Assembly: GCA_041737385.1 (NCBI GenBank)
Contig: JBGSRU010000007.1
Coordinates: forward strand, 5,552-69,551
Reading direction: 5' to 3'
DNA from: Candidatus Saccharimonadales bacterium
GTDB lineage: Bacteria; Patescibacteriota; Saccharimonadia; Saccharimonadales; SZUA-47
Length of the DNA: 64,000 bases
The notes under the pieces were generated by a model that worked only from the letters and a program-made list of their open reading frames with translations, did no database searches and had not been told where the DNA came from. A program made the position numbers and the translations under genes. Positions 182-53,674 of the stretch are shown here, piece by piece; the first letter of the stretch is position 1; each line of letters starts with the position of its first letter.

Positions 182-619
182 ATGAACACGCTTAAAAGAA
201 TATCATTCACCATTGCCCTCTCACTCGGCTTCATCGCGCCGTTAGCTGCTCCGATAGCCGTTAGCGCTCAAGAAATTGAAAAGAACCTACAGTGTGGTGC
301 TAACCTAGAGTTCGTCGTACCAGAAGGCGGCTGTGCAACGGACATAAACGGTGCCAGCGCCGCAGAACGTGTTGACGAAATCGTCTCTCAGGTTATTAAC
401 ATACTATCGCTCGCAGTTGGTGTAGTAGCTGTAGTTATGATTATCGTTGGTGGCCTTCGCTACATCACTTCTGGTGGTGATTCAGGCAATGTGACTGGTG
501 CCAAAAACACAATTCTCTACGCTGTTGTAGGTCTAGTGGTCGTTGCACTCGCACAAGTCATCGTACGATTCGTTGTCGATAGGGCAACTTTGACGGGCTC
601 CACAACCACAGTTGATTAG
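182..619 (+). CDS. TrbC/VirB2-type T4SS-pilin-like protein (signal peptide plus two C-terminal TM helices)
   Basis: N-terminal signal peptide ending AVSAQ. Two hydrophobic helices (VINILSLAVGVVAVVMIIVGGL and ILYAVVGLVVVALAQVIV) are separated by a GGDSGNVTGAKN loop. This is the typical architecture of Gram-positive/CPR conjugative-type pilins. Confidence 0.6.
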   Translation: MNTLKRISFTIALSLGFIAPLAAPIAVSAQEIEKNLQCGANLEFVVPEGGCATDINGASAAERVDEIVSQVINILSLAVGVVAVVMIIVGGLRYITSGGDSGNVTGAKNTILYAVVGLVVVALAQVIVRFVVDRATLTGSTTTVD

Positions 620-4180: not shown

Positions 4181-4369
4181 TGGTGGACACGGCAGGATTT
4201 GCCCACCAATGGCGACCCCGGAAAAACTTCTTAGAAAATAAATTTTCAAGAGTTTGTTCCCTTGCGGACTGCACGAATGACAGCCCTCACTTCCGACCTC
4301 ATCGGTCGTAGATTCAAATCTTCCAAGTAAAGCCAATAAAAAAGCCGGTCAGATGACCGACACTTTTAT
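4181..4369 (-). repeat. tRNA-Arg 3'-end cassette (same architecture as the tRNA-Ser cassettes)
   Basis: 4181-4201 TGGTGGACACGGCAGGATTTG matches the tRNA 3' end TGGTGAACCCGGCAGGATTTG (4370-4390) at 19/21. An opposite-strand decayed copy of the T-arm/acceptor lies at 4303-4335 (21/32). A terminator hairpin lies at about 4341-4362. Confidence 0.8.
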
Positions 4370-4446
4370 TGGTGAACCCGGCAGGATTTGAACCTGCGAC
4401 CTCTTGTACCGCAAACAAACGCTCTATCCAGCTGAGCTACGGGTCC
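4370..4446 (-). tRNA. tRNA-Arg (anticodon GCG), CCA encoded
   Basis: Reverse complement folds as GGACCCG-TA-GCTC..GAGC-G-TTTGT-TTGCGGT-ACAAG-AGGTC-GCAGG-TTCAAAT-CCTGC-CGGGTTC-A-CCA. Confidence 0.85.
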
Positions 4447-11727: not shown

Positions 11728-11882
11728 TTTGGATTTTCTACAGTTGGAATAAGCGCGGTAGACGTTGAGTACATCGACGGCGCTGTAACTGTACCGTTCG
11801 ATCGAAGCATGATTAATACATTTGCCGAGATTGCAGCGCTCAAAAAACGCCTTTCTAACAGATAAGGAAGCCATAAGTTGTA

Positions 11883-11911
11883 TTGACAAAAGTGACTATT
11901 TTTGCTATAAT
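11883..11911 (+). promoter_or_regulatory. Perfect-consensus sigma-70 promoter
   Basis: TTGACA-17 nt-TATAAT. Confidence 0.65.
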
Positions 11912-11959
11912 GCATTTGTTAATCAAAAACAAACAAAATAACTCAAGAAAATAAGAATC

Positions 11960-12085
11960 ATGACACAAAAAAATATTCCAATACAGTATGTAGACACCGA
12001 ACCGGTAGTTGTCACTTTTCGCCTCGACTTTGAAGATATCCCAGTTTTTACCACCTCTCCACGTAAAAGCAATAATACAAAATAA
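11960..12085 (+). CDS. Possible 41-aa small protein downstream of the consensus promoter
   Basis: ATG...TAA gives MTQKNIPIQYVDTEPVVVTFRLDFEDIPVFTTSPRKSNNTK. No convincing SD. It may instead be a 5' leader. Confidence 0.25.
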   Translation: MTQKNIPIQYVDTEPVVVTFRLDFEDIPVFTTSPRKSNNTK

Positions 12086-12091
12086 TAAACA

Positions 12092-12120
12092 TTGACAAAA
12101 TGTCAAATCTATGATAAGAT
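12092..12120 (+). promoter_or_regulatory. Sigma-70-type promoter for ORF 12172
   Basis: TTGACA-17 nt-TAAGAT. The -35 element is part of the palindrome TTGACAAAATGTCAA. Confidence 0.55.
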
Positions 12121-12171
12121 GTAGCCATAAGCAACATAAGTTCATAAGTACAAAGGATAAGTAAAAACACC

Positions 12172-13434
12172 ATGTCAGTAGAAGCACCAATAGCACCAAC
12201 AACAGAAGTTACAGATTTAAGATTAGTTCCTACAATGGACACTGTAAATGCTCCATGGGAAGCACCGAAAGCTGGCGACGCAGTTGAAGGCCTTAACGCG
12301 CCTGGCGCACTAGCAACCGAACAAGACGCTACTGATAATAGTGACCGATTCATGGCACGCGTTGCTTACCGTACTGCTGAGATTATGGAAAATATGGGCG
12401 ATAAGTTAGCTGCAAGCCGAACTCCACGTGAAGTACTATCTGATGTTGCCGTTAAAGCGAAGGAAGCAGCTGCTAATAGCGCTGAAAAATCTGGTGAAAC
12501 TTACGCTGCAACTAAGCAAAAGCTTAAAGGTGTAGGCGAGAAAATTACTTCAGGACTTGTCTCTACTAAAGAGAGCGTTGGTAACAAATTATCAAATGGA
12601 AAAGAACGAACTAAAGAATCTATAGCTGAAGCTAAAAAATCAGTTAAAGAGAAAGCTGAAGCAGCAGTAGCAAGTAAAAATGCTCGTAAAGCAAAGCGTG
12701 CTGATAATCGTGAAGCTCGAAAGAATGAACGTGCTAACAACAAGAACGCCAACAAACTCGCTAAAGTAAAAAGCAAGCTTGGCGACACCTCCGATGTGCC
12801 TGAAGATGCAACCGAACAAGACCTTAAAGACCTACTGGAAGCGAAGCAAAAAGAGCTTGCAGAGAAGAAAGTTGCCGACGCTGTGAAAAAAGATGCAGCT
12901 GCAGAGAAGAGAAAAATTCAGCGTAAAGAAGCCCGAACTCAGAGAATCGAAGCTGGCAAAGAACGACTTGTAAATGGTAAAAATCATGCAAAAAGTGTTG
13001 GTAAGTTTGCACTTAAGGGAATGATCGCAGTACCAATTGGCTTGACGGTTGCTGGTGTAGAAGCAGCAAAAGTAGTTGGAAAAACAACTAAACAAGCAGG
13101 ATCTGTAGCAGGAAGGGGCGTCGCTGGAGCTATGCGATCTACTGCTGAAGCCGCTGGGACTGCAGCGACTAAAACCAAAGAATACAGCAGCGCTAAAGTG
13201 CAGAGTGCTGTAGAAAAAGTGAAGGCATCCACAGATATAGCTGTTGGTGAAGTGCAACGCTTACGACTAGCGCGACTTGTGGGCCAGGCCGACAAAGAAG
13301 CAGTGAAGTTTGATAAGATCAATAGAAAAATTGAGAACTTCGATAAGAACAAAGTATATGCTGGAAAAGATGTTGATGAAATCGGTGAGAGGCAAGAAGT
13401 TACGCCGATTGATCAAGTCAATTTCACAGCGTAG
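12172..13434 (+). CDS. Lys/Ala/Glu-rich coiled-coil hypothetical protein with one hydrophobic segment
   Basis: 420-aa ORF of low complexity. The many antisense ORFs are artefacts of this composition. Confidence 0.6.
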   Translation: MSVEAPIAPTTEVTDLRLVPTMDTVNAPWEAPKAGDAVEGLNAPGALATEQDATDNSDRFMARVAYRTAEIMENMGDKLAASRTPREVLSDVAVKAKEAAANSAEKSGETYAATKQKLKGVGEKITSGLVSTKESVGNKLSNGKERTKESIAEAKKSVKEKAEAAVASKNARKAKRADNREARKNERANNKNANKLAKVKSKLGDTSDVPEDATEQDLKDLLEAKQKELAEKKVADAVKKDAAAEKRKIQRKEARTQRIEAGKERLVNGKNHAKSVGKFALKGMIAVPIGLTVAGVEAAKVVGKTTKQAGSVAGRGVAGAMRSTAEAAGTAATKTKEYSSAKVQSAVEKVKASTDIAVGEVQRLRLARLVGQADKEAVKFDKINRKIENFDKNKVYAGKDVDEIGERQEVTPIDQVNFTA

Positions 13435-19941: not shown

Positions 19942-20469
19942 ATGGCACTATTCAACCGCAAGAAGACACAGACAATTTCAGAACTAGAAGATTATTATGC
20001 AAACAAGCGTAACCGCAGTGGCATGGCTTGGTTAATGGCTTTCTTGAGTTTGCTTATAACTGTGCTCGTCATAGCTGCACTTTTCTTTGGTGGCCGTTGG
20101 TTATACCGAACAATATCTGACAGCGACAACTCTACTGATAGCCCAGTTTCAACGGTCAATACAGGAACAGTTGCTACGAGTAACGACAGGGATGATGTCA
20201 TAATTTCTGACTCACAAGTTGATAGCTCTGACTCGTCTAGTGACACAACAACTTCAACTTCAGAAGGTACTGTGTCTGACGAAGCAGCCAGCACTTCAGT
20301 ACCGAACACTGCGACCAACAATGGCCGAACTGCTGGGGCTACGACCACTCCTCCAAGCTCATCTAGCCAGATACCAAACACCGGTGCTGGTGAATTGATT
20401 ATTCTCGCTCCGCTTATCGCTGTAATTGCTGGCTACTTATTCTCTCGAAATCGACAAATACAAAGATAG
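19942..20469 (+). CDS. Ser/Thr-rich surface protein with an LPXTG-like sorting signal (IPNTG)
   Basis: N-terminal TM anchor and an S/T/D-rich spacer. C-terminal IPNTGAG plus a hydrophobic helix plus an RNRQIQR tail. Confidence 0.7.
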   Translation: MALFNRKKTQTISELEDYYANKRNRSGMAWLMAFLSLLITVLVIAALFFGGRWLYRTISDSDNSTDSPVSTVNTGTVATSNDRDDVIISDSQVDSSDSSSDTTTSTSEGTVSDEAASTSVPNTATNNGRTAGATTTPPSSSSQIPNTGAGELIILAPLIAVIAGYLFSRNRQIQR

Positions 20470-20504
20470 ATTAGTCGTTTATTATAATTTTATGATCTGA
20501 TTGT

Positions 20505-20765
20505 AAGCGTGGCTAGTGAAAGCCTCCTTCGTCGCTTTTCGCGCGACACTCGACTATCTTTTTGCTACAGATCAAAAAGATAGCAAAAACTCCGCGGCTG
20601 ACACTTCATCAGCGATGAAAACAGTACAAAAAGCGTCGTGCTTGCGGAACGCTAAAGCGGCCAAAAATGTTTATTATAATTGCTTATTTTTGACTAGTCC
20701 TCAGCAACGATTCGACGCTTTTTGTACTGTTTTCTCGGATGAAAGTGTTTTATGCCGAGAGGCCG
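20505..20765 (+). ncRNA. Candidate structured RNA / repeat element, copy 1 (homolog at 52397-52645)
   Basis: Hairpins at 20531-20547 and 20554-20583 (loop contains CTACAGAT), 20597-20613, and 20617-20638/20713-20734 (22-bp perfect). The element is alignable with the second copy, with compensatory changes. The overlapping 84-aa ORF looks non-coding. Confidence 0.45.
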
Positions 20766-20803
20766 CATAGGCTACGGATATATCGTGTTGGTATAATGAT
20801 TAT

Positions 20804-21322
20804 ATGAAGAAGTTTTGCCATTTGTGCGGTGCTCGATATGAAGAGGGAAAATCACAGCCGTGGGTTTGCTTTAGTTGTGGGAATGAATCCTACACTAACT
20901 CGGTACCATCTACAGAAATCGTGTTTTTTAATGAAAAAGGACAGCTACTCATCTGTAAGCGGGGGATTATACCTAATAAGGGGAAATATGATGTTCCGGG
21001 TGGATTCAATAATTTTAGAGAGTCTTCAGAAGATACCCTCAGAAGAGAAATCAACGAAGAACTTGGTCTTAGCGACGCAGATTACTCGGAACCACAGTTT
21101 GTAACGAGCTGGGTAGGCGAAGAAGGCTATAAGTTTAGCGTTGAAGTAATCTTTCCGCTCAACTCAGTGTTTGTTGCAAAACTATATACGACTGAATTAG
21201 TGGCTCAAGATGACGTTGAAAGCGTTGAGTTTGTAGATATGGATGAATTGGACACGGTAGATTTCTCGTTCAAAGATTACCCAATCATCATTCGAAAAGC
21301 TCACAAAGTGTTATTCGGCTAA
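20804..21322 (+). CDS. NUDIX hydrolase with an N-terminal zinc ribbon
   Basis: CHLCG...CFSCG zinc ribbon. Nudix box GGFNNFRESSEDTLRREINEELGL. TGGTATAAT extended -10 at 20787-20795. Confidence 0.85.
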   Translation: MKKFCHLCGARYEEGKSQPWVCFSCGNESYTNSVPSTEIVFFNEKGQLLICKRGIIPNKGKYDVPGGFNNFRESSEDTLRREINEELGLSDADYSEPQFVTSWVGEEGYKFSVEVIFPLNSVFVAKLYTTELVAQDDVESVEFVDMDELDTVDFSFKDYPIIIRKAHKVLFG

Positions 21323-23684: not shown

Positions 23685-24620
23685 ATGAGTGAAACAATTG
23701 AATTTGGTGTTGAGCTAGGCCTGACGCCTATTAAATCGACAATGAGAATGCAGCCTGATGCGCTGGTTTTCGATGATAACGGAATGTTTGGTGATAGAGA
23801 ATTAATGTTCGTCGAGGCTGAGGGCAAACATGTTGGTCAGTTTATCTCGCTGAGAGCTGATGGAGTTATGGCGCTTGTAGAATCTGTCATTACTGATGAT
23901 AGAGCGCTTCTCGACCATCCTGATGCTGGTTTAGAAATAGTTCCTAGACTGATAGAAACTGACGAAAATAGAATAGATGTTTCAGTACACAAATGGCACG
24001 GTGTGGGAGTTGACCAAGGGAATCAAGCAGCTGAATGGGGTAGAGCGGTTTTTGGTAGAGCTGTAAGACTTGTACGAGTGAGCGAAGAAAAACCCCGTTT
24101 TGTAGAGGACAACCAAAGACTTGGAAGAGTTGGGTTTTCAGACGGCTATCCACTGCTTGTCGTTAGTTAGGGTTCGGTCAATGCAATCAGTGATTTTATA
24201 GTTGAACAAGGCGCTGACCCTATAGAAGCGAGAAACTTTGGACCAAATATTCTTCTCGACAGCGATACACCGTTTATCGAAGACTATATAAAGTCAATTA
24301 CATTTGAATCAGAGGGTTTGCTGTGGGAGCTAATTAGAAGAAAAGCTTGCGGACGATGTGTCATGCCAAGTAGGCGCCCAGAAGACGGTGAGATGAGAAA
24401 AGGTATTACAGTTCTAGGAGCGTTGGCCGAGATGGGACGTAAGGGAACTCACGTTAATATTACTGACTTTGGAATTAGGCCTGAGCGATTTTTCGGTCAG
24501 AACTTCATAGTTAGACCACCGCAAGATTTACCTCCTAGACGAACTGGCATATTGCATGCTTCAACTCAGGTAACTGCACACATAAACGACAGCACAAACT
24601 GGGAGCCTGTTGCTGCCTAG
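23685..24620 (+). pseudogene. MOSC-domain protein interrupted by a single in-frame TAG (24168-24170)
   Basis: ORFs 23685-24170 and 24318-24620 are in the same frame. Translation between them continues as GSVNAISDF...RNFGPNILLD...CGRCVMP, a MOSC-like sequence with the conserved Cys. Confidence 0.6.
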
Positions 24621-24760: not shown

Positions 24761-25368
24761 ATAATTTCTCCGCGTTCGTTCACCGGTTTTGCTATCAGGA
24801 CGAGTCGGTTTTTAGCGGTCCAAATCGGGTCACAGGTGTAGATAGTAAGTTGCTTTTCCGTTGTTGGTGCCTCTATATCGACGGCTGATGCATCGACTAC
24901 TTTAACTTCGACTACTTCATACACTATCTCTTCACCCTCCCAGTATATTGCGAGTTTTTTGCCTTTTAGTACTTTGTCTAGGTGATAAAACGTCGAGACA
25001 TTATTACCAAAATAACGGTGTCCGACAACCACTGAGTTGCCGTTTTCATTTGGAGCAGCTGTTTGTGGTCGTCGCCATGTGCCGCCGTCATTTATAACGC
25101 CGATTGAGCTACCTTCTTCGATTGGTTCATTTACTTGTATCGATGGTATGACAATTCGGTTATCGTTGGGTTTTTCAGTTGCAGTGCTAGAACCCTCAGA
25201 GTCAGCCAAGCTGCCGACATATGGCGCCGAAGCTTCAGCCGATTTATCGCGGAAGATAAAGCTAAGCTGTGGCAAAAACGGCGACAGGGCAATATACAGC
25301 CCAAGTGCAATCACGACTACAGAGAGGAAATTATTAAAACGTCTCAAATTCATGTACACAAGTATCAA
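24757..25368 (-). CDS. Sortase (transpeptidase)
   Basis: N-terminal TM anchor. VVGHRYF catalytic His, LTIYTCDP (TLxTC-type Cys), and a downstream R. Confidence 0.85.
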   Translation of the reverse strand: MILVYMNLRRFNNFLSVVVIALGLYIALSPFLPQLSFIFRDKSAEASAPYVGSLADSEGSSTATEKPNDNRIVIPSIQVNEPIEEGSSIGVINDGGTWRRPQTAAPNENGNSVVVGHRYFGNNVSTFYHLDKVLKGKKLAIYWEGEEIVYEVVEVKVVDASAVDIEAPTTEKQLTIYTCDPIWTAKNRLVLIAKPVNERGEII

Positions 25369-27675: not shown

Positions 27676-27814
27676 GGAGAAGAACGGCCAGCATAAGCTG
27701 GTCTTTTTCTTTTAAGAAACAAAGGATTCGATCCGAAAAGGTTCGCTAAATAGTCTTATCACCCTGAAAGGGCTGATAGATTATTTAGGTCTCCTCATCC
27801 TGTTCTCTCCGCCA
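27676..27814 (+). repeat. tRNA-Ser(GGA) 3'-end cassette
   Basis: ATCCTGTTCTCTCCGCCA (27658-27675) repeats perfectly at 27797-27814. Terminator GGCCAGC-ATAA-GCTGGTC plus T-run. Inverted decayed copy at 27714-27734. Direct GGTTCG at 27740-27745 followed by a hairpin insert at 27752-27783. Confidence 0.85.
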
Positions 27815-28949: not shown

Positions 28950-29240
28950 ATAAAATAACCCCCACATGCAAAACATGTGAGGGTTTATTTTTTGGGAGAG
29001 CACAGAGACAACTTCTTGTCTCTGTGGGGATTCGAACAGCTTAAGCCTTGTTCCGCCCAATGTGCGGAACGGCGCGCCGAGCTCACGAGCATATTGCAGA
29101 GCAATATGACTTGGGAGGTGGAAATCCCTCCCTCTCTGCCAGAGAGAATCGCCTGGGTCTTTTTACGCAGGCGTTTTTCTTTTGCTAAAGAAAAAGGATT
29201 CGAATCACAGGTTCATGAGGTAAAGCATCCCTCCCTCTCC
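28950..29240 (+). repeat. Two stacked tRNA-Ser(UGA) 3'-end cassettes
   Basis: AATCCCTCCCTCTCCGCCA (28931-28949) recurs at 29123-29141 (18/19), and as ATCCCTCCCTCTCC at 29227-29240. Inverted decayed copies at 28993-29036 and 29183-29206. Terminator hairpins after each CCA. Confidence 0.8.
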
Positions 29241-29274
29241 TTGAATATAAAATAACTACTGTACAATAGCGTTT

Positions 29275-48786: not shown

Positions 48787-50511
48787 ATGACGGATGCAGT
48801 AACAGAAATAAAAGCAAAGCTCGGTATTGAAGACATTGTGAGTGAATATGTCCAGTTAAAGCGTTCAGGTAGGAATTTTAAGGGCCTCAGCCCATTTACC
48901 AATGAAAAGTCACCAAGCTTCATAGTGAGTCCAGAAAAACAGATCTGGCACGACTTTAGCTCAGGAAAAGGCGGCGATATGTTTAGCTTTATCCAAGAAG
49001 TTGAGGGCTTAGATTTTAAGGGTTCGCTGGAGTTACTTGCGAGGAAGTCCGGTATAGACCTTGCTGATTTTCAGACAACAAAAACAAGTGGAGATGGAGA
49101 CAGAAAAGCAAAAGATAGATTATTTGAAGCAGTAGAGCACGCTGTCAAATTCTACCAAGTACAACTGACAAAACACACTCCTTCGCTAAAGTATTTACGT
49201 GAACACCGAGGGTACGAAAAGCAGACATTACTTGATTTTCGTTTTGGCTACTCACCGAGTAGTGGTAAAGCGCTCAGTAATTACTTAGCGACAAAAGGCT
49301 ACAGTACTTCAGAGCTGCAGAAAGCTGGACTCATTTCAAGCCGCGGCAATGATACCTATGATATGTTCCGTGACCGAATCATGATTCCATTATTAGATCC
49401 ACAGGGAAGGGCAGTCGGATTCACTGCTCGACTTCTTACGGAAGATAAAAATGCTCCAAAATACATCAATACCCCAAGCACGCCACTGTACGATAAGGGT
49501 CGCCAAGTATTTGGGCTCTCACAAGCCAAAGAAACCATAAGAAAGACCGGTTACGTAGTTGTCGTTGAAGGTAATCTAGATGTTGTTGCAAGCCATCAGG
49601 CTGGTGTTGCTCAAGTTGTTGCATCTGCAGGCACCGCCTTAACCACGTATCACCTGAAATCACTGCAGCGGTTCACTGGAGATATACGCTTAGCGTTTGA
49701 TGATGACAGAGCAGGGCAAGATGCCGCGGAACGTGCAATCCCGCTGGCTCAAACGCTTGGACTGGAGCTCAGCATCGTGAGGTTGCCAAATGGTAAAGAC
49801 CCAGATGACCTTATTAAACAAGACGTATCAGCATGGCAGAAAACAGTCGACTCGTCTCAGTATATGGTTGACTGGCTTATTGATAGGATTGCAGAAACTG
49901 TTGATCTATCGAGTGCTCAAGGTAAAAGGCAGTTTACACAGAGAATTTTGGTGCTGGTCAGGCAGCTGAAAGATACGGTTGAACAGGAACATTATGCACG
50001 AGTTATTGCCGAGAAAACCCACACCAGTTATGAAACGATACAGTCAAAACTATCAGAACAACCAGCGGTGCAAACACGACTGAAATCTGTCAAAGTCGAT
50101 ACAGACGAGCCAAAGACGAATAAAGAGCAACGAGTGAGGGAGCAACACTTGCTCGCAATGAGCATGCACTCAAGCAATATCGGCCAAAATTTAGCAAAAT
50201 TACCGCTTGATGTATTCTCGGCAGAAGCGCAAGAAACAGCAAGCTACATACAACAGCATCCAGGTGTCTCGCCAACAGAGTCAGAATATGGTACAATGTT
50301 GCTACTTCTATTTGAGGAATATTACCAGCATACTGACGAAGACGAGCTTGCCTATCAGGCAAAACAGCTTCTCACCAGACTGGTAACAACGTACACGAAA
50401 CTAAAAAAACAAGCTCTCGCCAACGAACTGGCAGAAGCTGATGATGAAAAACAGAAAACATTATTACAAGCAGTTAAACAGCTAGATGATCTAGTTGTGC
50501 AATTTTCATAG
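48787..50511 (+). CDS. dnaG: DNA primase
   Basis: Zinc-binding N-terminus (region [13 protein letters not shown]), TOPRIM ([16 protein letters not shown]). Confidence 0.92.
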
Positions 50512-51805: not shown

Positions 51806-52387
51806 ATGAAGTTAATTGGATTATCTGGAACGAATGGCAGCGGTAAAGATACGGTTGCTGAATTATTAGCAAAACGACACAATTTTTTGTTCATTTCTGT
51901 CAGTGACTTACTCCGCGATGAAGCGAGAACAAGAGAGTTATCAAATGAACGTGAAATACTTCGAATGATTAGTGCTGAATGGCGCCGTGAGCACGGGCTA
52001 GGGGCACTTATTGACAAAGCCGTCGAACTCTACAACGAAAAAGGCGGCGACAATGAATTTAACGGCCTTGTAGTCTCAAGTATTCGTAATACTGGTGAGA
52101 TAGAGCGCATACATGAATACGGTGGAGAGCTTATATGGATAGATGCGGATCCGCAGATTCGCTATGATCGTATCAACTCGCGGGGACGAGAAGACGATAA
52201 AATTTCATTCGAAGAGTTTCAAGCACAAGAAAAGGTTGAGATGGAGCGAAGTGGTGACGCGGCAACACTGAACATGGCTGATGTTAAAAAAGGTGCAGAT
52301 AGAACATTCATGAATAATCATGTAGATATCGAATCTCTCGATAAAACAGTTATGGATGATTTAAAGCATCTCCGGTCAGGAAACTAG
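51806..52387 (+). CDS. P-loop nucleotide/nucleoside kinase-like protein (CoaE/dNMP-kinase-like)
   Basis: IGLSGTNGSGKDTV Walker A. About 190 aa. Substrate not assignable. Confidence 0.5.
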   Translation: MKLIGLSGTNGSGKDTVAELLAKRHNFLFISVSDLLRDEARTRELSNEREILRMISAEWRREHGLGALIDKAVELYNEKGGDNEFNGLVVSSIRNTGEIERIHEYGGELIWIDADPQIRYDRINSRGREDDKISFEEFQAQEKVEMERSGDAATLNMADVKKGADRTFMNNHVDIESLDKTVMDDLKHLRSGN

Positions 52388-52396
52388 ATGCATTAT

Positions 52397-52645
52397 GTGG
52401 CTTTGCGCGCCACACCTCGCCTCACTTTTACCTACAGATGCAAAAGTAAGCAAAAGATCCGCGCCCGGCTGACAAGAACATGATTGAAGCAAGATACTAG
52501 GTACGGCTTGCGCAGTGAGGACGCAAGCGGTCCTCGGTTGTTTCCTTAGTTACTTACCTCGGACTAACTCACTGCTTTACTCAAGCCATACCTGATTTAC
52601 TTCATCAGTTTCGCAGAGGGTGGCCGAACACATAAGGGCCACCTG
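52397..52645 (+). ncRNA. Candidate structured RNA / repeat element, copy 2 (homolog of 20505-20765)
   Basis: GTGGC-TTTGCGC-GCCAC hairpin. A second hairpin has a CTACAGAT loop. Shared GGCTGACA...ACTTCATCAG, with about 125 nt inserted relative to copy 1. Terminal hairpin GGTGGCC/GGCCACC. No ORF. Confidence 0.45.
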
Positions 52646-52669
52646 TAAAGATTATTCCTAAAGATATTG

Positions 52670-52698
52670 TTGACAAAAAATACATTATATGCTAAGAT
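52670..52698 (+). promoter_or_regulatory. Sigma-70-type promoter for ORF 52772
   Basis: TTGACA-17 nt-TAAGAT. Confidence 0.55.
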
Positions 52699-52771
52699 TC
52701 ATACAAGTTATTAAAACAAAAAGATAACAAAAACATAAAATAAAAACAGTACGTAAGAAAAAGGAAATAAT

Positions 52772-53674
52772 ATGTCAGCAACAGGCGAAGCACCAGCACC
52801 ACAGCCATTACCAACAGAAGGAACAGTCTCAAATATTCCAGGAGAAGCATTAGCAAATTTTGATGAAAATCCTGTTGATCCGAATACAGTTAAGAATACA
52901 GGCTCGTTTATGCTTGATGCTTCAAAACTGAAATCATTTACTAGTGAGACTGAAGCAACTAATTTTGACGCTAAAATTGATGCTGATGACAGAGAAGCTA
53001 ATGCTAGATTAATAGAAGAGATTGAAACAACGACCGGTTCTGGCCCAGACGATATATTGAGACTATTAACAAAATATAGCCATAATCAGGCAGGTGCTTT
53101 AGTGGATGCTGACGGAAATACTGCTTCAGATAGGATGGCAGCAACAAGAGCAAGTGCGATAAAGACTCTCAAGCTTGATCCAATGAAGTTTGAGGCGCTT
53201 GAGAGATATGGCATTACAAAAGTGCGAGAGGAAGATGGTGCTGATTTTGTAGAAAATGCACGTATAAATCTGGCTGAATTAGATCTTGATCCTGCAACCG
53301 TGGACAAGATGACTAAAACCATAGTAGAGCTCGGAGATAAATTAGATAAAATTTACACTACACCAAAACCTACGGGTATTAAAGATACTGAAATGTATCC
53401 ACCAAAAATGTATAGTGCAGGTGGAATAGAAAACGCCGTTAAAGATAGACTTCCACAAGGTAATGCTGATGAGCTACGCTCAATGGAAGAGATTACCGGA
53501 ACTGGTCCAGATACGATGATTAGAGTCTTGAACGACCAAGAAGTAGAAGGAGTCTCAGACGAACAAAAAGCTCTAATTAAAGAGGCTTTAAGAAATCCTA
53601 ACGTGATAGCAGCTCTAAGAGCTTACGACCGCATAAAAACAAAACCTGAGGCTAGCTCAGAAGAAAGCAACTAA
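52772..53674 (+). CDS. Orphan protein with an internal duplicated motif
   Basis: EEIETTTGSGPDDILRLL and MEEITGTGPDTMIRVL repeat. Disordered P/E/T N-terminus. Confidence 0.5.
   Translation: MSATGEAPAPQPLPTEGTVSNIPGEALANFDENPVDPNTVKNTGSFMLDASKLKSFTSETEATNFDAKIDADDREANARLIEEIETTTGSGPDDILRLLTKYSHNQAGALVDADGNTASDRMAATRASAIKTLKLDPMKFEALERYGITKVREEDGADFVENARINLAELDLDPATVDKMTKTIVELGDKLDKIYTTPKPTGIKDTEMYPPKMYSAGGIENAVKDRLPQGNADELRSMEEITGTGPDTMIRVLNDQEVEGVSDEQKALIKEALRNPNVIAALRAYDRIKTKPEASSEESN

Follow-up and report, generated by a model that had tools for sequence, protein, structure and literature searches.

We analysed two intergenic regions that lie 32 kb apart in a 64,000-nt stretch of contig JBGSRU010000007.1 (hereafter the window; positions are counted from its first letter) and that carry related sequences, here called copy 1 and copy 2. 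Judging by the names of the homologues of its proteins, the window represents core chromosomal DNA of a Candidatus Saccharibacteria. Its genes include those of GroES/EL, ValRS, ArgRS, DnaG, RpoD, PolA, and a sortase, and the nearest relatives in the protein collection share only 61-76% protein identity. GC skew is positive across the entire window, from which we infer that the plus strand is the leading strand. Copy 1 sits in a 334-nt spacer between the gene of an LPXTG-type protein (end at 20469) and a leaderless Nudix gene (ATG at 20804), while copy 2 sits in a 384-nt spacer between a kinase gene (end at 52387) and a gene of 300 codons (start at 52772). The genes that adjoin the copies encode Nudix, PGI, a GGDEF protein, the kinase, and the hypothetical protein of 300 aa. 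The same genome is represented by a Logan contig of identical sequence, which is broken within copy 2.

Both copies contain a module (20531-20603 and 52397-52474) that is absent elsewhere in the window and consists of two hairpins, P1 and P2, an identical 8-nt loop on P2, and conserved linkers with the pattern CAAAA..TCCGCG..GGCTGACA. An earlier note on this DNA had proposed a novel structured RNA or repeat family here. Upon re-reading of the sequence, P1 and the linker pattern were found exactly where that note had placed them. The coordinates of P2 and its loop core CTACAGAT were borne out as well, while the copy 2 stem that it gave on the plus strand turned out to contain two C-A mismatches. 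The parts of the module are the following.

Copy 1, 20531-20547, minus strand: P1 hairpin, with a 5-bp stem GTCGC/GCGAC and a 7-nt loop; one additional U-G pair on the minus strand.
Copy 1, 20554-20583, minus strand: P2 hairpin, with an 11-bp stem and the 8-nt loop CTACAGAT (minus strand AUCUGUAG).
Copy 1, 20584-20603, minus strand: conserved linker CAAAAACTCCGCGGCTGACA.
Copy 2, 52397-52413, minus strand: P1 hairpin, GTGGC/GCCAC.
Copy 2, 52421-52450, minus strand: P2 hairpin, with 11 bp on the minus strand only, two of them G-U, and an 8-nt loop identical to that of copy 1.
Copy 2, 52451-52474, minus strand: conserved linker CAAAAGATCCGCGCCCGGCTGACA.

The modules of the two copies align with 76% identity over 78 nt (E=9e-10, blastn within the window). 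Pattern searches of the window matched these two sites only, both for P1 (0.06 matches expected) and for the combination of P2, loop, and linker (0.00 expected). A covariance model of the module (R1) gave 98 and 96 bits on the two copies, and its next best match, with 16 bits at 24948-25020 inside the sortase gene, is a chance one.

Read on the minus strand, P1 and P2 together have 17 pairs, each of which is of a standard type in both copies. Between the copies, one pair of P1 and four of P2 are altered on both sides, five in total, and one further pair is altered on a single side, so that every stem substitution keeps the pairing while the P2 loop and the linkers are unchanged. Among controls, 11 of 500 shuffles did as well, and slid partners paired at 35-56% of positions. 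This shows that the P1 and P2 hairpins are under constraint, which is distinct from a covariation test, as covariation is not statistically testable with only two sequences. Hence, the covarying helices of the earlier note stand as compensatory changes and not as statistical covariation. A pseudoknot between the P1 loop and the UUUUUGC linker was also considered. It forms 7 bp in copy 1 and was rejected, given that the changes in copy 2 are not compensatory.

The similarity had previously been described for the 5' parts of the two regions. It is real and reaches further. Downstream of the module, each copy folds into one long hairpin, and these homologous but strongly diverged hairpins of ~140 nt are followed by a terminal region. 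An island GCTTGCG..GGA(A)CGC(TA)AAGCGG(C/T)C is shared within the long hairpins (20640-20662 and 52506-52533), at a similar distance from GGCTGACA in both copies. The regions after the hairpins can be aligned (GTTTTATGCCGAGAGGCCG.. with GTTTC..GCAGAGGGTGGCCG...), and the right ends have GATAT(n)TGTTG in common (20777-20790 and 52663-52672). It follows from the shared island, post-hairpin regions, and right ends that the entire units of ~260-290 nt are homologous. The long helices have been almost wholly rewritten between the copies and are nonetheless still paired. On the other hand, the third helix of the earlier note, which was said to close on the same sequence in both copies, was not upheld. 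In copy 1, the 10-mer in question, ACTTCATCAG, is part of the 5' arm of the long hairpin (20603-20612), and in copy 2 it is part of the 3' arm (52599-52608); the two sites are therefore not homologous positions. Its presence in both copies reflects a repeated GATGAA/TTCATC motif rather than a homologous closure.

The long hairpin of copy 1 contains a perfect 22-bp helix with no wobble pair at all, which fits a DNA palindrome better than an RNA, while copy 2 looks older and decayed. Of the terminal hairpins that had been claimed for the two copies, that of copy 2 (52619-52643) is strong and that of copy 1 is weak. A GTGGC..GCCAC hairpin occurs exactly twice in the 64 kb (0.17 expected), once at each end of copy 2 (52397-52413 and 52620-52642). 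Copy 1 has a long-range or imperfect terminal inverted repeat (20508-20526 and 20759-20776) in which ~12-14 of 19-20 positions are complementary, and the left ends of the two copies do not align with each other. At the right end, the terminal TTG enters the downstream promoter in both cases, providing the TG of TGgTATAAT in copy 1 and the TTG of TTGACA in copy 2. No intrinsic terminator was found on either strand at the copies.

Two motifs in the long hairpin of copy 1 resemble those of ssoA, an origin of rolling-circle plasmids that forms a strand-specific hairpin of ~160 nt and carries the motifs RSB (TTATGCCGAGAAAATTT) and CS-6 (TAGCGT) (PMC4598088; PMC8860593). These motifs are marked among the features outside the module, which are listed below.

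Copy 1, 20508-20526, minus strand: left distal segment CGTGGCTAGTGAAAGCCTC; in the fold it pairs with 20759-20776, and it has no counterpart in copy 2.
Copy 1, 20602-20747, minus strand: long hairpin, with an outer helix of 20602-20610 and 20738-20747.
Copy 1, 20617-20638 with 20713-20734: perfect 22-bp helix of the long hairpin.
Copy 1, 20649-20654: apical region of the long hairpin, ACGCTA (minus strand TAGCGT, the CS-6 motif).
Copy 1, 20730-20738: foot of the long hairpin, TTTTCTCGG (minus strand CCGAGAAAA, the RSB core).
Copy 1, 20748-20776: terminal region, with TTTTATGCCGAGA at 20748-20760, an exact 13-mer of the ssoA RSB on the plus strand.
Copy 1, 20759-20776: weak hairpin after TTTTATGCCGAGA.
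Copy 1, 20777-20790: right terminus GATATATCGTGTTG, directly next to TGgTATAAT, the promoter of the leaderless Nudix gene.
Copy 2, 52475-52610, minus strand: long imperfect hairpin, with the island GCTTGCG..GGACGCAAGCGGTCC at 52506-52533.
Copy 2, 52619-52643, minus strand: terminal hairpin GGTGGCC/GGCCACC, with the same stem as the P1 of this copy.
Copy 2, 52663-52672: right terminus GATATTGTTG, overlapping the -35 box TTGACA (52670-52675) of the downstream gene's promoter.

Fold energies and wobble pairs favour the minus strand, which is not the strand that the earlier note described. In copy 2, the two C-A mismatches of P2 on the plus strand become G-U pairs on the minus strand (-2.9 versus -12.2 kcal/mol), and the long hairpin changes from -44.1 to -52.8. 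The same holds for the whole of copy 2, both when folded as RNA (-77.4 kcal/mol with z of -1.8 on the plus strand, versus -97.2 with z of -3.9 on the minus strand) and with DNA parameters (-36.8 versus -42.6). The whole fold of copy 1 is symmetric (-103.8 versus -104.0), with a minus-strand z of -7.3. Counted arm against arm, nine wobble pairs belong to the minus strand and two to the plus strand (two-sided binomial p ~0.065). As C-to-T pressure on the leading strand predicts the opposite bias, this excess may reflect selection for minus-strand folding.

Comparison with syntenic relatives provided insights into how the copies came to their present sites. Relatives of the first locus, with Nudix proteins 53-61% identical, keep the order GroES-GroEL-172aa-Nudix-(minus-strand gene), and in them only ~20 nt separate the stop codon of the 172-aa gene from the Nudix ATG (stop, 5-15 nt, TATAAT, 6-8 nt, ATG). 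The left flank of copy 1 retains a stop, 13 nt, TATAAT, 3 nt, and ATGA (20483-20495), and a second TATAAT-6-ATGA at 20792-20807 serves the actual Nudix gene. Here and in relatives, the -10 box of this gene lies only 6-8 nt 5' of the ATG (20792-20806 in the window, as the extended TGgTATAAT; L018 762-775 and L019 3712-3729 in relatives), so that the Nudix mRNA is probably leaderless. At the second locus, the kinase gene overlaps a polyprenyl-synthase gene in all relatives examined (L004 4569-5648, L005 1228-2328, L008 4564-5637). A tblastn search found neither this gene nor a remnant of it in the whole window, and the idea that copy 2 is what is left of it was dropped. Apart from this, the genes around both copies stand in the same order as in the relatives, so that rearrangement breakpoints were rejected as the origin of the copies, and no further copy was found in ~90 kb of the relatives' DNA with R1, nhmmer, or blastn. 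By this comparison, both copies are lineage-specific insertions relative to the syntenic relatives.

Searches for known families returned nothing at the two sites. With Rfam 15 at the gathering threshold, only four tRNAs passed in the window, none of them at the copies; in E-value mode, both copies gave only chance-level snoRNA and sRNA matches (E of at least 0.07), and there was no IS605-orfB or HEARO match. This agrees with the earlier statement that RNase P, tmRNA, SRP, 6S, T-box, and common riboswitch signatures could not be matched by eye. Candidates suggested by eye (tmRNA, SRP, 6S, RNase P, T-box, hammerhead, and C/D-box or K-turn) were dropped for want of model support; the CUGAUGA that recalls a hammerhead sits within a helix. 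A retron non-coding RNA (msr-msd) was discarded as well, there being no adjacent reverse transcriptase gene. The single open reading frame at copy 1 (20516-20770, 84 aa) had been called non-protein-like, and indeed it has no homologue among 1.84 billion representative proteins. A coding role was rejected, as no peptide is conserved between the copies and indels break the frame.

Further copies were sought in larger collections. When GTDB (185,579 species genomes), the JGI metagenomes, and IMG/VR were scanned with patterns, all matches were high-GC chance ones that lacked hairpins. Since the two copies show a 24% difference from each other, patterns with 18-20 fixed bases were probably too strict, and the lack of further members in these scans carries little weight as evidence. 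Blastn against phage and plasmid collections gave no match, and scans of the window with R1 and nhmmer found the two copies only. With no further member found anywhere searched, there is no demonstrated family. Of the earlier interpretation, which is partly supported, there remain two homologous, structured, non-coding copies. The two make up a real non-coding element, restricted to one lineage, whose folding is on the minus strand and which is inserted at two sites.

We tentatively favour, at somewhat less than an even chance, the reading that the two regions are diverged copies of a gene-less, non-autonomous, hairpin-dependent insertion element of ~260-290 bp, and not of an ancestral RNA gene. 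Such an element would have entered two intergenic spacers of this Saccharibacteria lineage, and its conserved parts would act when the minus strand is single-stranded and folded. The acting parts would be the P1 end hairpin, P2 with its invariant 8-nt loop, the long hairpin, and, in copy 2, a second end hairpin with the P1 stem. HUH/Y1-transposases and rolling-circle Reps recognise hairpins and loop sequences in single-stranded DNA, and the hairpins may be cis sites for a trans-acting enzyme of one of these types that is encoded elsewhere. The long hairpin of copy 1 might work in the way of an ssoA, as a folded promoter mimic on which RNA polymerase primes the complementary strand. By analogy with the end hairpins of IS200/IS605-like elements and with ssoA-like priming hairpins, these are the likely modes of action. 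The unchanged loops and linkers beside stems that keep their pairing count in favour of this reading, and so does the absence of an intrinsic terminator, which is not typical of a small RNA (sRNA) gene. Further support comes from the changes at both loci and the lack of a copy in the relatives' DNA, the minus-strand bias, the twin end hairpins of copy 2, the ssoA-like motifs and perfect 22-bp stem of copy 1, and the weak flank repeats described below. In its most elaborate form, the idea would be that of a miniature element of the candidate phyla radiation (CPR) that passes through a single-stranded stage, carries its own ssoA-like priming hairpin together with a P2 hairpin for loop-specific nicking or recognition, parasitises a Rep or Y1-transposase encoded elsewhere, and gives promoter parts to the genes downstream. 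We consider this elaboration unlikely.

The resemblance to ssoA was assessed against seven real ssoAs, from pE194, pT181, and five other plasmids. All seven read ATTTATGCCGAGAAAAC, a stem of ~15 bp, TAGCG(T/A) in the apical loop, and GGAAATTGGAATAAA. The minus strand of copy 1 has CTTTCATCCGAGAAAAC, which matches 13 of 17 positions of the RSB motif TTTATGCCGAGAAAAC, with the 10-nt core exact, and stands directly before the 22-bp stem. TAGCGT follows in the apical part, 3' of the apex, and the whole hairpin measures ~145-160 nt. Copy 2 displays degenerate motifs only (TGCGAAAC and TTGCGT), and across the window the CS-6 hexamer is found about every 3.6 kb. Like the ssoA (palA) of the pE194, pT181, and pMV158 family, the copies are non-coding and form a long, imperfect, strand-specific hairpin of ~150-160 nt, and copy 1 has, on the minus strand, the RSB core CCGAGAAAAC at the 5' foot, a long perfect stem next to it, and an apical TAGCGT. 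Unlike ssoA, the copies are chromosomal, without a nearby Rep gene or double-strand origin, and CS-6 lies 3' of the apex instead of in the terminal loop.

Other likenesses are to the ends of IS200/IS605 elements and to PATEs. As in these, there are no clean terminal inverted repeats, folding is strand-specific, and the units are small, gene-less, and intergenic. Copy 2 has subterminal hairpins of the same stem at both ends, which copy 1 lacks. Unlike those systems, neither TnpA nor TnpB is encoded in the window, and CCAAC and TCAAC, the left flanks on the minus strand, do no more than hint at a target sequence. A resemblance of P2 and P1 to the MOBV, MOBQ, and MOBP nick sites was too weak to be used. 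Meanwhile, ERIC/RU-1, the Rickettsia RPE, the miniature inverted-repeat transposable elements of Coxiella, and the Correia elements of Neisseria are intergenic insertions of 100-300 bp with long hairpins, and such mobile palindromic repeats are often co-transcribed and sometimes serve as promoter parts or sRNAs (PMC10969869, PMC5896051, PMC2229807). The TTG at the right terminus of our copies is likewise part of a downstream -10 or -35 element. However, each of those families comprises tens to hundreds of fairly similar copies in which terminal inverted repeats and target duplications can be recognised, whereas here there are two copies that are 76% alike in their best part, the inverted repeat of copy 1 is imperfect, and the flank repeats are doubtful.

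Several observations weigh against an insertion element of this kind. Only two copies were found, both within the 64-kb window, in which Pfam searches detected no gene of a transposase, Rep, relaxase, integrase, or reverse transcriptase, and thus no rolling-circle Rep or relaxase linked to the copies. The left and right hairpins of copy 1 are dissimilar to each other. Right ends of the IS608 type extend ~10 nt past the hairpin; here, unlike in such ends, the copies cease to be homologous directly at the foot of P1. At these loci the leading-strand template is the minus strand, which is not the usual active strand of IS200/IS605. Candidate flank repeats are present at copy 1 (TATAAT..ATGA, 20483-20495 and 20792-20807) and at copy 2 (AT(G/A)CATTAT(G/A)TG at 52388 and 52680, with 10 of 12 positions matching), and each is within chance (estimated p ~0.1-0.3). 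As for ssoA, an exact RSB 13-mer, TGCCGAGAAAACC, occurs by chance inside dnaG (50007-50019), which makes the RSB match of copy 1 less significant. The RSB partner GGAAATTGGAATAAA is absent from copy 1, an nhmmer profile of ssoA was not significant on the copies (E=6), and a covariance model of the seven ssoAs (R2) reached 12 bits (E=1.3) at 20744-20801 of the plus strand only, leaving the minus-strand hairpin unscored. Because these formal profile tests fail and the 3' partner is absent, the similarity to ssoA is one of layout and motifs, not of membership. Finally, conserved loops and compensated stems are equally expected of a functional RNA. The earlier note had named a small mobile repeat as one outcome that would refute its proposal. 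The insertions, the twin end hairpins of copy 2, the weak flank repeats, and the lack of a terminator go part of the way towards such a repeat and leave it unproven.

The main alternative would be a pair of sibling sRNA genes, which we hold to be somewhat less likely than the insertion element. These would produce RNAs of ~230-290 nt from the minus strand, divergent from the promoter of the downstream gene. The invariant loop AUCUGUAG of P2 and the linkers UGUCAGCC/GCGGA/UUUUGC would serve for protein binding or for base pairing with targets, and the hairpins would confer stability. The fully kept pairs of P1 and P2 with their five double changes, the conserved loops and linkers, the G-U pairs on the minus strand, and the minus-strand z-scores of both copies (-7.3 and -3.9) are all consistent with this. 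The regions are non-coding, a perfect minus-strand TATAAT lies upstream of both (ATTATA at 20799-20804 and 52684-52689), and the lack of an Rfam match means that such RNAs would be new. Nevertheless, the minus strand has no -35 box and no intrinsic terminator, although canonical intrinsic terminators are used elsewhere in the window's genome. The sequences are absent at the orthologous loci and in the ~90 kb of relatives, a perfect 22-bp duplex free of wobbles is unusual for a stable RNA, and copy 2 looks decayed instead of maintained. Two sequences yield no statistical covariation, and the twin end hairpins of copy 2 and the ssoA-like motifs would have to be coincidences. The copies are reminiscent of sibling sRNAs such as GlmY/GlmZ, 6S-1/6S-2, and OmrA/OmrB in being paralogous non-coding loci with conserved single-stranded motifs and diverged, compensated helices. 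They differ from these in having no terminator, no orthologues in related genomes, no known partner, and no Rfam family.

A cis-acting role on the plus strand is improbable. Here the copies would be blocks of a 3' untranslated region or of an inter-cistronic region, similar to REP/ERIC, that stabilise or terminate the mRNAs of the LPXTG protein and the kinase and insulate these mRNAs from the downstream promoters. The position of both copies, between the end of a plus-strand gene and the next plus-strand promoter, would suit such a role, as would the lack of any other terminator behind the upstream genes, the TTTTAT that follows the long hairpin of copy 1 on the plus strand, and the equal folding of copy 1 on both strands. 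Copy 2 does not conform to it. On the plus strand its P2 loses two pairs (-2.9 kcal/mol), the whole fold has a z of only -1.8, and no hairpin is followed by a T-run; moreover, the conserved loop and linker sequences are left unexplained.

We also give little credence to the possibility that an old duplication or rearrangement left the copies behind as neutral remains, with no present function and with residual palindromy as their structure. That only two copies exist, that no relatives of them were found, and that the long hairpin of copy 2 is rich in mismatches would all be expected in such a case. Nonetheless, divergence is very uneven, with identical loops and linkers, compensated stems, and long helices that have been turned over almost fully and yet remain paired. 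The perfect 22-bp helix of copy 1 also speaks against this possibility, and the strand bias of the wobbles opposes the mutational bias that the GC skew would lead one to expect on the leading strand. Lastly, P2 is very improbable as a double-stranded DNA site, either the core of a tyrosine recombinase (lox/FRT/dif-like) or an operator: its 11+8+11 bp layout, with an identical asymmetric spacer CTACAGAT in two directly oriented copies 32 kb apart, is suggestive, but 4 of the 11 arm positions are not the same in the two copies, each difference being matched in the partner arm, so that the arms preserve a hairpin and not a protein-recognition sequence, two pairs are complementary only as wobbles on one strand, no recombinase is encoded in the window, and the intervening 32 kb contain the essential genes rpoD, dnaG, and argS in the same order as in relatives.

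Saccharibacteria are episymbionts with genomes of ~1 Mb that are thought to be poor in repetitive DNA. Should the copies be a mobile hairpin element, they would be among the first small non-autonomous elements described in this group, and they would show how insertions can rebuild promoters, as the right-end TTG is taken into the -10 or -35 element downstream. If they are instead a pair of sRNAs, they would represent a lineage-specific regulatory RNA; to our knowledge, almost no non-coding RNAs are known in the Saccharibacteria. In either case, their general significance is limited, with one lineage and two copies known.

Some further observations were made in the window and its relatives. A type IV secretion pilin gene (TrbC/VirB2-like) lies at the start of the window (182-619), and relatives have DUF87/TrwB-like ATPase genes near the kinase locus (L004 7502-8576; L008 7229-8567), so that conjugation-type machinery for handling single-stranded DNA exists in the group. 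Fragments of the 3' end of tRNA-Ser, in direct and inverted orientation, are located beside three tRNA-Ser genes (2406-2583, 4304-4401, 27704-27759, and 29113-29244), a 56-nt repeat is found downstream of two of these three genes, and a tRNA-Arg is overlapped by an imperfect palindrome of 48 nt. These may be old integration scars.

Strong promoters of the form TTGACA-17-TA(T/A)(A/G)AT, followed by long A-rich leaders, were found at 11880-12171 and at 52670-52771, the latter next to copy 2. The genes behind them (12172-13434 and 52772-53674) encode mutually dissimilar proteins without Pfam domains, and a second TTGACA-type promoter and a small open reading frame are present at 11885-12100. Finally, a gene with a MOSC domain (region 23685-24620) has an in-frame TAG at 24168-24170, after which the frame stays open and protein-like for 150 further codons; this might point to a pseudogene, a sequencing error, or read-through.

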